A stretch of 64,000 nucleotides of DNA. It comes from a virus (lineage: Duplodnaviria; Caudoviricetes). Numbering within the stretch: the stretch's first letter is position 1; every line of letters starts with the position of its first letter. Shown piece by piece: positions 10,046 through 38,413 of the stretch. The position numbers and the translations under genes were made by a program. The notes beneath the pieces were generated by a model, which was given only the letters and a program-made list of their open reading frames with translations, did not search any database and was not told the origin of the DNA. The stretch spans positions 416,001 to 480,000 of the IMG/VR virus record IMGVR_UViG_3300049988_000286. The stretch is one strand, 5' to 3'.

Positions 10046-10484
10046 CTGCTCCTAGGCCCGTCCCTGCGAGGAATTCTTTCAGATTAGAGCCATGGCGGAG
10101 GCGCTGCAATATTGTCGCCATACCAAGCTCGTCAGCATCGGGCCAGTATTGCTCAAGGAACTCCGTAAGGGCACGGCTGCTCTTTGATTTTGTGCCCGCG
10201 ATCCAGTCATGGCGGGTTCGCATCCCTAGCCCCACACTGGCGAGAAGTCGATATTGGAGGTCGGTGTAATCATAGAGGTCGTAGAGGTGGCGGTTTGCCC
10301 GCTCGTTCGTGGCGATCAGGTTCCAATCATCGAGGTCACCGCTCGCGCTACTGACGAACCTGACGACCACGGTGGGGTGGAAACCCTTCTGTTCCTCTGG
10401 CGTCAACCCGTCGTAATAGTTGAGATCGTGCTGATCGATCGCTGAAAGGGTTCTACCAATATCGAGTGCGTGTCTTTTAGCCAC
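10008..10484 (-). CDS. Hypothetical protein, possibly clamp-loader small subunit-like (gp62)
   Basis: ORF in the replication cluster (GTG start chosen); the function is only a weak resemblance. Confidence 0.45.
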   Translation of the reverse strand: MAKRHALDIGRTLSAIDQHDLNYYDGLTPEEQKGFHPTVVVRFVSSASGDLDDWNLIATNERANRHLYDLYDYTDLQYRLLASVGLGMRTRHDWIAGTKSKSSRALTEFLEQYWPDADELGMATILQRLRHGSNLKEFLAGTGLGADEVKRVTKLFAD

Positions 10485-25352: not shown

Positions 25353-25555
25353 AATGCCTTGGCCTTTGGTGCAGAGCGGTCCGAACAAGAACCAGCCTCG
25401 TTCGCGCAACGCAAAGACCGGTCGCATCCGGAAAAAGCACGTTTTCACAGCCCCGTCGCCGCCGCCGAGCGATCCCAAATCGTCCTGATTTTACGCTTGC
25501 CTCGCGGGATCGGGCGCGGCAATTAGGCCGCGTTATCAACGAATCAGGATCGAGC

Positions 25556-27095: not shown

Positions 27096-27123
27096 TTGTT
27101 GACACCCAAAAGCTCGTGTGAGA

Positions 27124-27129
27124 TAAATA
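27124..27129 (+). promoter_or_regulatory. Late promoter (TAAATA) of the His/Tyr leader and tRNA array
   Basis: Same motif and spacing as the other 18 leaderless late starts. Confidence 0.75.
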
Positions 27130-27134
27130 CTCCT

Positions 27135-27179
27135 ATGAACACGCAGAGCCATCACACCTATTATCATTACCACGCGTAA
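27135..27179 (+). CDS. His/Tyr-rich leader peptide MNTQSHHTYYHYHA
   Basis: ATG AAC ACG CAG AGC CAT CAC ACC TAT TAT CAT TAC CAC GCG TAA; 4 His + 3 Tyr; precedes tRNA-Tyr/His genes. Confidence 0.75.
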   Translation: MNTQSHHTYYHYHA

Positions 27180-27290
27180 GCGGGGTCGTGGTAACGCGTC
27201 CTCGTTTCGGGGACGATGAAGGTGTGAAAGAGCCAGCGTGGCACTCTCCCCATAGTTGAACCCGCGAAGACGCAGATGATTTGCGTATCA
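27152..27290 (+). promoter_or_regulatory. Attenuator-like structured leader RNA
   Basis: Perfect 8-bp helices 27167-27174/27187-27194 and 27152-27159/27220-27227; hairpin 27197-27215; alternative pairing 27170-27175/27237-27242. Confidence 0.6.
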
Positions 27291-27300
27291 TGTTGCTAGT

Positions 27301-27384
27301 GGGTCGGCTGGACACGAGTGAGTCCACCTGACTGTAAATCAGACGCTTTGGCTGTGAGGGTGCAAATTCCTTCCCGGCCCACCA
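27301..27384 (+). tRNA. tRNA-Tyr(GUA) with atypical D- and T-loops
   Basis: Acceptor GGGTCGG/CCGGCCC, A73, CCA; anticodon loop CT-GTA-AA; long variable arm; T-loop TGCAAAT. Confidence 0.85.
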
Positions 27385-27407
27385 AGCAACCAAAGAACAG
27401 TGATCAG

Positions 27408-27484
27408 GTGCGGCCGAGGCTGACTTGGATGAGGCGCGCGGTTGTGATCCGCGAGATAGTGAGTTCGAACCTCACCGGTCGCCC
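27408..27484 (+). tRNA. tRNA-His(GUG), CCA not encoded
   Basis: CGCGG-TT-GTG-AT-CCGCG; T arm GTGAG-TTCGAAC-CTCAC; G-1:C73. Confidence 0.85.
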
Positions 27485-27502
27485 CTGAACACTGTTCACC
27501 TT

Positions 27503-27596
27503 GGGAGGTGCCCCCGCTCGCCGGTTGTAACCCGGTGGTCTCTAATAAGGGTGGGAAGCATTGAGGCGATGGGTGCAATTCCTACACCTCCCACCA
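27503..27596 (+). tRNA. Atypical tRNA-Tyr(GUA)-like gene with truncated D arm and very long variable region
   Basis: Perfect acceptor GGGAGGT/ACCTCCC, A73, CCA; GCCGG-TT-GTA-AC-CCGGT; T-loop TGCAATT. Confidence 0.6.
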
Positions 27597-27599
27597 CGT

Positions 27600-27674
27600 G
27601 GCGTTGGTAGCTCAATGGTAGAGCGCTCGATTGTGGATCGAGATACGCGGGTTCGATCCCCGTCCTTCGCCCCA
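27600..27674 (+). tRNA. tRNA-His(GUG)
   Basis: Canonical D arm GCTC-AATGGTA-GAGC; CTCGA-TT-GTG-GA-TCGAG; TTCGATC; G-1:C73; CCA; two U-U pairs in the acceptor stem. Confidence 0.9.
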
Positions 27675-36889: not shown

Positions 36890-37159
36890 TCAATCGGATC
36901 GAGTCAGATCGAAGATGGAGACCTTCGGGGCAGCGCGATCCTCTTCCACCATTTGGGTATGATGGGTCGGCTCGCCGAACAGTTTCTGGTTCAGCTTCTC
37001 GAAATTCTCGACACTGGCCTTGGCGCGCTTGAAGGCAGGATCATCGCTGCAACCCCGCATCGCATCCATGAACGACGAACGGTCCGCCACCGCATAGGAG
37101 AGCGCGGAGCGGATGATGTTGAGATCATTGGCGGTGATGGTGGGCTTACGATGCGCCAT
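36890..37159 (-). CDS. Hypothetical protein (89 aa)
   Basis: ORF track. Confidence 0.6.
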   Translation of the reverse strand: MAHRKPTITANDLNIIRSALSYAVADRSSFMDAMRGCSDDPAFKRAKASVENFEKLNQKLFGEPTHHTQMVEEDRAAPKVSIFDLTRSD

Positions 37160-37316
37160 GGATCATTCCACCCATGTAGAGTATAAGTGCCCCGCCGATT
37201 ATATTGGCAAGACCGATTAGTTCTCGTCGAGAAGCCCGCGTCTCCGCTGGGTTGGTGGAAAGATACCATCCCGAAAACAGGATGACTGCCGCACACAGAC
37301 TAATCACTAATGACAT
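37146..37316 (-). CDS. 56-aa two-TM membrane protein (MSLVISLCAAVIL...)
   Basis: Manually translated; downstream of a TTGACT-N17-TACACC promoter. Confidence 0.5.
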   Translation of the reverse strand: MSLVISLCAAVILFSGWYLSTNPAETRASRRELIGLANIIGGALILYMGGMIHGAS

Positions 37317-37375
37317 GTCTTCTTCCCTTCACTCTTGGTGTAGGGGATAGTTCGATGACAGTCAAGATAAATGAA

Positions 37376-37460
37376 TGGTCCCCCGGACGAGAATCGAACT
37401 CGCTGATGCTTTCGCAAACAGGCGTGAGAAACCTGCGTCCTGCCATTAGACTTCCGGGGG
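37376..37460 (-). tRNA. tRNA-Glu(CUC) with long variable arm
   Basis: Acceptor CCCCCGG/CCGGGGG, A73, CCA; CAGGT-TT-CTC-AC-GCCTG; V arm TGC-GAAA-GCA; TTCGATT. Confidence 0.88.
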
Positions 37461-37461
37461 A

Positions 37462-37545
37462 TGGCCGCGCTGACGGGAATCGAACCCGCTTCTGCTTTCG
37501 CAACAGGAGTGAAAGTCCTGCGTCCGCCCATTAGACTTCAGCGCG
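37462..37545 (-). tRNA. tRNA-Glu(UUC) with long variable arm
   Basis: Acceptor CGCGCTG/CAGCGCG, G73, CCA; CAGGA-CT-TTC-AC-TCCTG; V arm TGC-GAAA-GCA; TTCGATT. Confidence 0.88.
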
Positions 37546-37577
37546 ATAGGCTGGTCTGGATGGATCATTAACGGGGG

Positions 37578-37628
37578 AGAAACAGAACCAAAATCACCCG
37601 CGCCGTCGAGGCGCGTGAAAGCGCACTC
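37578..37628 (-). promoter_or_regulatory. Terminator/antiterminator-like switch upstream of the tRNA-Glu pair
   Basis: Hairpin CGCGCC-tcgac-GGCGCG (37599-37615) with U-rich tail; competing GAG+GCGC helix (37608-37628). Confidence 0.5.
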
Positions 37629-37674
37629 AACCGATCGAGCGTTCGCGTTCCATGAGGGTGTAGGTCGTGTTCAT
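37627..37674 (-). CDS. Leader peptide MNTTYTLMERERSIG
   Basis: ATG 5 nt after TAAATA (37680-37685); two GAA codons; same ATG AAC ACG start as the His/Tyr leader. Confidence 0.6.
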   Translation of the reverse strand: MNTTYTLMERERSIG

Positions 37675-37718
37675 GTTTTTATTTATGCCTGAACGGCATC
37701 CGGGCGTCAACATCTTTT

Positions 37719-38051
37719 TTGACCTTCGTGCAATCACGCTGCTACCCTCACGTGATGACGCGTTCGAAACTCGCAGCCCGTTCACGCGATGACTGGCGCT
37801 GCCACACCCTGTCGGTCGAATCGCTGTTCGATGTCCCTAAAGTTAAATGGCTCGTCCGGTTCAACTCCGCCTTCGACAGCGATCAACCCCAGACGTGGCT
37901 CGTTGATTCCGTCGCATACGAGAAAGGAGAGGAAGTGGCGGCTTGGCTCATCGATAGTTGCGACGGAGACTTCGCCATATTGCGTTATCGCGGCCACGTC
38001 ATATTCGAGCGAGAGGATGATGCTCGCCTCTGCTACCTGACCTTTGCTTAG
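37719..38051 (+). CDS. Hypothetical protein, F-x3-D-x3-F-x-L family
   Basis: VIFEREDDARLCYLTF; start uncertain. Confidence 0.6.
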   Translation: MTFVQSRCYPHVMTRSKLAARSRDDWRCHTLSVESLFDVPKVKWLVRFNSAFDSDQPQTWLVDSVAYEKGEEVAAWLIDSCDGDFAILRYRGHVIFEREDDARLCYLTFA

Positions 38052-38359
38052 ATTGCGTACTGGTTCGCGGCGGCGACGAGTTCATCGTGCTCCGCTTCTG
38101 CGGCTTTGTCCGACCACGGCTTGTAGGTGCCGCTCCCATAGCTGCTGTGGATGCGGGGGAAGGGCTGTCCCGAACGCAGCGCCTGACCGGCTTGCCAGAG
38201 CATCACTGCATCCGGGCCAGTGAAACGCTCATCAACCGAGTCCCACTTGGGGTCGTAGTCGGGGCGGATTCCAGCATGGCGCTCGATGAAGGAATCGATA
38301 CGATCGGCGAGATCGGGGTCGGTATGTGCTTCGGTGATCATGTCGATATAGTCGCGCAT
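38048..38359 (-). CDS. Putative head-internal protein
   Basis: MRDYIDMITE 5 nt after TAAATA. Confidence 0.7.
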   Translation of the reverse strand: MRDYIDMITEAHTDPDLADRIDSFIERHAGIRPDYDPKWDSVDERFTGPDAVMLWQAGQALRSGQPFPRIHSSYGSGTYKPWSDKAAEAEHDELVAAANQYAI

Positions 38360-38413
38360 ATGATTATTTAGCGCAAGGCTTGACACCTTACCGAACTATG
38401 CTAACTGACCGGC

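Follow-up and report, generated by a model that had tools for sequence, protein, structure and literature searches.

What determines when a phage transcribes two transfer RNA (tRNA) genes for glutamate that lie behind a strong promoter, a very short open reading frame (ORF), and a terminator-like hairpin? The question arises on the minus strand of a 64,000-nucleotide stretch of DNA (the window), which spans bases 416001-480000 of a 499,572-bp virus record (57% GC; CheckV rating, complete). This phage record carries at least 42 tRNA genes along with a permuted transfer-messenger RNA (tmRNA) gene, and its tRNAs are grouped in small arrays by amino acid: Gly-Gly, Arg-Arg, Cys-Cys, Gln-Gln, Lys (three), Pro/Leu (eight), Ser (three), Tyr/His (four), and Glu (two). 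Based on sequence comparison and predicted RNA folds, we consider it likely that a Glu-responsive, ribosome-mediated attenuator controls the two tRNA-Glu genes.

Leader, folds, and proposed switch of the Glu array

The original prediction had described a TAAATA followed after 5 nt by ATG AAC ACG and two GAA codons, and each of these elements is present on the minus strand: TAAATA at 37685-37680, then AAAAC, then the start codon from 37674. The promoter is near-consensus for sigma-70 (Table 1), a type that is almost restricted to the tRNA arrays and the tmRNA gene of this phage, and a TGTTGACA box lies upstream of each of eight RNA-gene arrays in the genome. In every leader of the class described below, the -10 hexamer ends 7 nt from the ATG (6 nt from the GTG of the Gln leader), a spacing that is unchanged in relatives with GC contents of 30-58%, and a Shine-Dalgarno sequence is absent from all of them. 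Because of this short distance and the missing Shine-Dalgarno sequence, transcription probably starts at or adjoining the A of ATG 37674, which would yield a leaderless mRNA. Most leaders have an in-frame stop 2-16 codons upstream and no alternative start in between, and the conserved ATG is therefore taken as the start codon. A 52-codon reading from GTG 37785 in the same frame was set aside, since it crosses the conserved promoter and most sister frames are closed just upstream.

The leader reads ATG AAC ACG ACC TAC ACC CTC ATG GAA CGC GAA CGC TCG ATC GGT TGA. GAA makes up 36% of the Glu codons in the phage and is the minor one, and the GAA codons of the leader are decoded only by tRNA(UUC), whose gene comes first behind the switch. 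A preference for minor codons that end in A is also seen in the Gln, Lys, and Ile(UAU) leaders. Beyond the stop codon stand the GC hairpin with its U-rich tail and the tRNA-Glu(UUC) and tRNA-Glu(CUC) genes that the original prediction had read there, as seen in the sequence and in ARAGORN and Rfam results. The hairpin is followed by GGTGA and then TTTTGGTTCTGTTTCT, the U-rich tail UUUUGGUUCUGUUUCU occupies 37593-37578, and the stem can be extended by UCAC/GUGA or CACCC/GGGUG pairing.

Three alternative helices emerged when this RNA was folded. The free RNA, from the ATG to the U-tract, forms helix 1:2 together with the terminator hairpin, and helix 1:2 is found in both the minimum free energy (MFE) and the centroid structure; its 5' arm is the Glu/Arg codon block and its 3' arm holds the stop codon. 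We then masked the RNA to 12 nt past the first base of the codon in the ribosomal A site and asked how probable the terminator stem is in the folding ensemble. For A-site codons 2-11, this probability was 0.00-0.25 and the antiterminator formed, consuming the 5' arm and loop of the terminator; from codon 12 up to and including the stop codon, it was 0.89-1.00. Given this jump from codon 12 onward, GAA-CGC-GAA (codons 9-11) are the final three permissive positions, and the second GAA is the last antiterminating stall site in silico. Textbook attenuators place their sensor codons at just such last positions that permit read-through. The mutually exclusive helix that had been predicted at 37608-37628, overlapping the stop codon, essentially corresponds to helix 2:3 of Table 1, and the claimed 1:2/2:3/3:4 geometry was reproduced with and without the ribosome mask. 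The ORF stop codons consistently lie at the 5' arm of the competing helix. Within its own genome, the Glu leader has the cleanest geometry of this kind yet the fewest sensor codons.

These features suggest the following mechanism. A host-type RNA polymerase would initiate from the strong promoter of sigma-70 type, with its first nucleotide at or beside the A of ATG 37674, and produce a leaderless mini-mRNA from which a 70S ribosome would translate MNTTYTLMERERSIG. When Glu-tRNA(UUC) is plentiful, the ribosome would reach the TGA and cover 37631-37621, so that the hairpin and U-tract form and transcription ends before the tRNAs. When the ribosome waits at a GAA (codon 9 or 11), the same segment would be free to pair with the 5' arm and loop of the terminator, and polymerase would read through into both tRNA-Glu genes. 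With no ribosome on the transcript, the codon block would pair with the stop-codon segment and termination would prevail again. The tRNA product would relieve the stall, making the element a negative-feedback sensor of tRNA-Glu supply that may be triggered when host tRNA-Glu is scarce, cleaved, or outcompeted.

The genes under this putative control are the two tRNA-Glu genes, not biosynthetic enzymes or an aminoacyl-tRNA synthetase, and the ORFs that come later have no Pfam match. Both tRNAs contain an extra GC-GAAA-GC hairpin in the variable region. Such a long variable arm is unusual for tRNA-Glu, although many other tRNAs of this phage are likewise 85-95 nt long. A search of the genome for a phage glutamyl-tRNA synthetase (PF00749) found none, which leaves no synthetase of the phage to which the long-armed tRNA-Glu could be linked. 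A metatranscriptome contig bridges the ERER stretch (37636-37660) and the tRNA start (37509-37545) in a variant with 98 nt rather than 90 nt between them, a weak hint of joint transcription given that DNA carry-over is possible.

Leaders at other tRNA arrays and in other phages

The original prediction had pointed to a leader of the same design at a His/Tyr array and proposed looking for more of them. The His/Tyr leader 10 kb away has the identical TAAATA, 5-nt spacing, and ATGAACACG. When the whole record was scanned for the promoter plus a start codon, the same design turned up before further arrays (Table 1). We evaluated the correspondence between leaders and arrays by dropping the shared first three codons, applying a binomial test to each leader, combining the results by Fisher's method, and comparing them with 20,000 random re-pairings. 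In the phage's own genome all eight leaders matched their arrays (8/8; Fisher combined P = 1.5e-16), and only 1 of the 20,000 permutations was as good. This bears out the earlier argument that leader codons matching their tRNAs at separate arrays make coincidence less likely. Leaders with mismatched codons, which would have spoken against the attenuator reading, were sought, and none stands before any array of the genome; the Cys, Leu-CAG, and Arg-CCU arrays and the two tRNAs with anticodon CUA have no leader ORF.

The correspondence extends beyond this genome. We searched IMG/VR and metagenome contigs for nothing more than the promoter and ATGAACAC, a pattern that is blind to the remaining leader. 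Nine leaders in unrelated metagenomic or viral contigs match their arrays (combined P = 2e-17; 1 of 20,000 permutations as good), and the correspondence was seen in every match that had a short ORF and a downstream tRNA on the same strand. Glu codons, whose enrichment in homologous leaders had been suggested as a check, recur as ERER in contig L107, as DEREED in L009, a locus of the 266-kb relative G001, and as DEREDD in L035. Asp codons appear in the leader exactly where tRNA-Asp belongs to the Glu array (L009 and L035). Judged from sequence, the Glu element by itself is not beyond chance, whereas the ensemble that it forms with the other arrays and the relatives is.

The closest counterpart, in L107, has a three-state fold like that of the Glu leader, with the switch between codons 12 and 13. 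Its helices are built from other sequences: helix 1:2 pairs AACGCG..CGCCUG with CAGGCG-CGUGUU, and helix 2:3 forms on CAGGCGC with GCGCCUG. The two folds were compared separately, as the ungapped MAFFT alignment is out of register in the 3' half. By this modeling, it is the design that is conserved and not sequence alone. The tRNA of L107 was missed by ARAGORN; its anticodon loop, CUUUCAC, was read by eye, and it forms a cloverleaf on folding. Located at 2280-2354 of the contig, this tRNA-Glu has an unusual T loop and a short variable arm. In the Trp/Phe leader of G002, LFWRF falls within the permissive window of masked folding. No leader can be recognized at L011, an isolated tRNA-Glu at another place in G001.

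Taken together, these comparisons lead us to favor, with some reserve, the view that a clade of huge phages, with GC contents of 30-58% and from several habitats, regulates its tRNA arrays amino acid by amino acid through leaderless leader-peptide attenuators with rewritten sensor codons. A given tRNA set would then be expressed only when ribosomes stall on its codons, for example upon depletion of host tRNAs or their cleavage by an anticodon nuclease, and the Glu leader would be the Glu-specific member.

Other searches around the locus returned little. There was no blastn match between 3.5 kb around the Glu locus and GenBank phages, Pfam yielded nothing for the nine ORFs that flank it, and a homologue search with the upstream 112-amino-acid ORF retrieved only the protein itself. 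Two further pattern scans of viral contigs for ERER-type leaders gave zero matches or chance matches without tRNAs. In a relative from run X2, the flanks at 37000-37316 and 37790-38400 are approximately 92-95% identical to the window, and the two contigs diverge into unlike sequence exactly at the leader-plus-tRNA cassette (window 37316-37790). Because the flanks are similar and the contigs part from the window exactly at the cassette, the leader and tRNA-Glu genes seem to form a module that varies or can be exchanged.

Apart from opening with MNT, many leaders close with Gly and a stop codon (SIG*, TFG* twice, NRG*, FEG*, FGG*, IIG*). Leader codons 5-6 often read (T/A)TCACC or TACACC and are able to pair with a downstream GGUGA, which lies after the terminator stem in the Glu type and over the stop codon in the Asp/Glu type. 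These conserved leader ends may serve RNA pairing or slow termination. A hairpin followed by a conserved CTTTGACATG stands between leader and first tRNA at genome ~25408-25440 (plus) and ~403370-403390 (minus), at L005 ~10068-10095, and in L039; its carriers are the multivalent and Ile/Thr leaders of the phage and two relatives, and it is not in the Glu leader. This element may act as a second promoter (TTGACA) or as a conserved motif of the RNA.

Several tRNAs of the phage and its relatives depart from the canonical form. Four tRNA-like genes follow MNTQSHHTYYHYHA (window 27099-27674, plus), where ARAGORN calls just two His(GUG); window 27301-27381 is a borderline Rfam tRNA (29.2 bits) with an anticodon loop that reads GUA (Tyr) by eye, and 27503-27596 has the appearance of a second, non-canonical Tyr-like tRNA. 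At genome 402970-403045 (minus), a tRNA with an 8-nt anticodon loop (ARAGORN 'tcca') stands where relatives have tRNA-Trp(CCA), and the leader of its array contains one Trp codon. Two Rfam-positive tRNAs missed by ARAGORN, at genome 25982-26054 and 29033-29105 (both plus), have odd T arms with GGGCAGAAC-type loops and anticodons that by eye are Val(GAC) and Ala(GGC). Non-canonical tRNAs thus seem common in this phage clade. The anticodon-CUA tRNAs (amber-suppressor type; ARAGORN label Pyl) are at genome 102238-102314 (plus) and 106351-106425 (minus), and G001 has a tandem CUA pair (L014 1420-1574). Of the three stop codons, TAG closes the fewest long ORFs (50/306), and none of the eight leaders ends in it. 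Finally, the permuted two-piece tmRNA (genome 15527-15913, plus; tag VNDNDIRMAIAA) has the array-type consensus promoter and lacks a leader ORF. Its two-piece form, characteristic of Alphaproteobacteria, is a hint that the host belongs to that group. Among the sequencing runs compared, all of them as contigs, the best DNA match came from a leaf metagenome, which may be the sample of origin.

Table 1. Elements of the Glu locus (window coordinates), and leaders of the same class with the tRNA genes that they precede
Feature	Position	Strand	Detail
A-tract, UP-element-like	37720-37715	minus	read from sequence
-35 hexamer TTGACG	37710-37705	minus	read from sequence
-10 hexamer CATAAA	37687-37682	minus	17 nt past the -35 hexamer, 7 nt ahead of ATG
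Leader ORF MNTTYTLMERERSIG	37674-37627	minus	15 codons plus TGA; read from sequence
Putative sensor codons GAA (codons 9, 11)	37650-48, 37644-42	minus	interleaved with CGC
CGC (Arg) codons	37647-45, 37641-39	minus	read from sequence
Helix 1:2 (predicted anti-antiterminator)	37652-37616	minus	UGGAA-C-GCG-AA-CGCUCGA with UUGAGUG-CGC-UUUCA, 15 bp
Helix 2:3 (predicted antiterminator)	37631-37621 with 37614-37605	minus	GUUGAG-U-GCGC with GCGC-CUCGAC, 10 bp, about -16 kcal/mol
Helix 3:4 (predicted terminator hairpin) CGCGCC-UCGAC-GGCGCG	37615-37599	minus	all-GC 6-bp stem; with U-tail, 37615-37578
C-rich, G-poor spacer	37577-37546	minus	U-tract to first tRNA; 5' leader of tRNA precursor
tRNA-Glu(UUC)	37545-37462	minus	ARAGORN; Rfam 51 bits; 84 nt, CCA encoded
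tRNA-Glu(CUC)	37460-37376	minus	ARAGORN; Rfam 47 bits; 85 nt, CCA encoded
Same genome, MNTQSHHTYYHYHA	27137-27181; 27099-27181	plus	before Tyr, His, Tyr-like, His
Same genome, MSTMTLSTRKRKRL (RKRKR)			before Lys (three)
Same genome, (V)TNSHALLPFEAQRQQR (QRQQR)			before Gln (two)
Same genome, MNTTTSSTTISWSITFG			before Ile, Ile, Trp-like tRNA, Thr; Thr and Ser (three) further down
Same genome, MNTNTTFVAGRGVVANRANRG			before Met, Gly, Gly, Arg, Arg, Val, Asn, Ala, Asn
Same genome, MHQLI			last codon ATA; before Ile(UAU)
Same genome, 47-codon Leu/Pro-rich ORF containing ALPLLPLLPLPLLA			plus terminator; before Pro/Leu array
L107 (GC 46%), MNTIFTLLERERLS			ERER kept; before tRNA-Glu(UUC)
L009 (G001, 266 kb, GC 58%), MNTNFTSIRLDEREEDTFQR			DEREED; before Asp(GUC), Glu(CUC), Glu(UUC)
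L035 (77 kb), MNTTITILFELDEREDDTSLR			DEREDD; before Asp(GUC), Glu(UUC), Glu(CUC)
G003 (GC 41%), MNTNTTSITTIWSSTFG			before Ile, Ser, Trp, Trp, Ile, Thr (three)
G002 (GC 30%), MNTKRKFLRTTSEGFEG			before Lys
G002 (GC 30%), MNTQTALFWRF...			before Trp, Phe
L034, MNTVSFIVAPVAIIVAVAAIIAVA			before Val, Ile
L065, MNTNFTSGSSSFKGSSSFFHYYGRKS			before Tyr, Phe, Ser, Gly
L039, MNTNSSITTTISWSSTIR			before Ile, Trp

The Arg codons and alternative readings

A number of observations weigh against a Glu-specific attenuator, and we discuss them along with the alternatives that they would favor. The first concerns the sensor. The leader has just two Glu codons, Arg is equally frequent, and the Arg codons are conserved. 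As the original prediction had cautioned, this is little to go on: two Glu in the 12 codons after MNT have P = 0.17 against the amino acid usage of the phage. In addition, a modeled stall at any of codons 2-11 antiterminates, such that Glu specificity rests on comparison and not on geometry. One could thus argue that the attenuator reports general ribosome speed or the supply of Arg-tRNA(ACG), with ERER mainly building a GC-rich 1:2 stem. All four Glu-type leaders have GAACGCGA without variation, the two CGC codons pair within helix 1:2 in this leader as well as in L107, and Arg is interleaved in exactly those leaders with A-rich sensor codons (Glu, Lys, Gln), as well as in the Asp/Glu and Trp/Phe leaders. 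Yet, leader composition follows array identity across 17 leaders, with Asp codons present in just those Glu-type leaders whose array includes tRNA-Asp, while the Arg tRNAs have their own leader with Arg codons and there is no Arg in the His/Tyr and Ile/Thr leaders. We therefore regard a general or Arg sensor as unlikely. From the predicted pairing, we infer that the CGC codons provide G-C pairs for the 1:2 stem; they may have a second, Arg-sensing role, given that a stall at the first CGC antiterminates in silico too.

The second set of observations concerns the output. The terminator of the Glu leader is modest, with a 6-bp stem that, if not extended, is separated from UUUU by 5 nt. Its U-tract is interrupted, and that of the orthologue L107 is poor. 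Masked MFE folding gave no antiterminator in the Asp/Glu leader of G001 or the Lys leader of G002. Helix relays can be read by eye, though they were not confirmed by folding: GCGGUGA(CC) repeats in G001 and GCGGUGA/UCGCCGC/GUGGCGA/CGCCAC in L035. In the phage's own genome, the His/Tyr, Lys, and Gln leaders are without a clear hairpin-plus-U terminator, and for this reason their output may take another form or depend on Rho or processing. It is conceivable that the codon-sensing leader is real and that its output is not intrinsic termination, with Rho acting at the C-rich spacer once the ORF has been completed, or with the alternative folds steering RNase E or RNase P processing and precursor stability. 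Judged by its composition, the spacer, which resembles the C-rich spacer before the tRNA of L107, is a possible Rho-loading stretch. However, at approximately 32 nt it is short for Rho loading, and canonical intrinsic terminators stand between leader and tRNAs in G001, G002 (twice), L035, and L065. An output other than intrinsic termination is thus quite improbable in our assessment.

The remaining observations concern whether the Glu leader is expressed and translated at all. Its -10 hexamer fails a strict sigma-70 consensus rule (position 6 is A), its frame is open for 55 codons upstream, unlike that of most sister leaders, and translation without a Shine-Dalgarno sequence depends on the presumed leaderless start. 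Furthermore, the fold z-score is only -1.9, and terminator-like sites are expected by chance at approximately 0.8 per 700 nt. While these two figures, the missing Shine-Dalgarno sequence, and the Glu count would also fit a strong promoter followed by an untranslated 5' leader of the tRNA precursor, with ORF and Glu codons due to chance and hairpins of an ordinary precursor, an absence of regulation is highly improbable, because the codon match holds genome-wide and across phages, ERER and the three-state fold are kept in L107, ORFs consistently stop at the 5' arm of the competing helix, and a terminator straight after a strong promoter would be hard to understand if read-through were not conditional.

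Comparison with known attenuators

As to why phages carry tRNAs and when they use them, compensation of codon bias, degradation of host tRNAs, and escape from anticodon nucleases have been proposed. If a codon-sensing switch stands in front of each tRNA array, the phage would gauge decoding failure directly and respond with the tRNA that fits, and the question of phage tRNA use would come down to simple reporter assays. Leader-peptide attenuation would then also cover RNA genes as targets, viruses, and leaderless mRNAs. More generally, the rewritable sensors ERER, DEREED, RKRKR, QRQQR, and HHTYYHYH could be used as codon-specific translation reporters in synthetic biology. Our full-text searches of the literature found leader-peptide control of tRNA genes described nowhere, an absence in the papers covered that falls short of proof.

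The classical leader-peptide attenuators of enterobacteria are trpL, hisL, leuL, thrL, the ilv leaders, and pheM, which precedes pheST and illustrates that attenuation logic is able to serve the translation apparatus. Like these, the Glu leader has a short ORF with codons for the regulated amino acid, mutually exclusive 1:2/2:3/3:4 helices, a hairpin with a U-tract, and a ribosome whose position, here by computation, selects the fold. Unlike them, its targets are phage tRNA genes and not enzymes, its two sensor codons are interleaved with Arg, and its ORF has no Shine-Dalgarno sequence and is apparently located at the 5' end of the transcript. Feedback would consequently act on tRNA supply instead of amino acid supply. 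T-box elements bind uncharged tRNA directly, without translation. The Glu leader resembles them in that the state of a specific tRNA would be sensed and a choice made between terminator and antiterminator upstream of translation-related genes, while its sensor is a putatively translated ORF. An Rfam scan of the whole window returned tRNA matches only, with no T-box covariance-model match and no other riboswitch.

A parallel for the presumed 5' end of the transcript comes from mycobacteria, where leaderless polycysteine short ORFs on the bacterial chromosome attenuate protein genes of cysteine metabolism (10.1101/834739). The Glu leader would share with them a leaderless 5' short ORF, the sensing of one amino acid by stalling, and the attenuation of downstream expression; it differs in its phage tRNA targets and in the terminator/antiterminator pair evident from its predicted folds. 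The nearest relatives of the Glu leader are its sisters in the same genome and in L107, L009, and L035, which have in common the promoter, the spacing, the MNT start, and codons matched to the array. Among these, the leader of L107, which has ERER ahead of a tRNA-Glu, is a true orthologue. The Asp/Glu leaders of relatives would differ from the Glu leader in the longer relay of helices read by eye as mentioned above. With respect to known attenuators, what is new about this class is that its putative targets are tRNA genes, that its owner is a phage, and that a modular sensor block is rewritten for each array.

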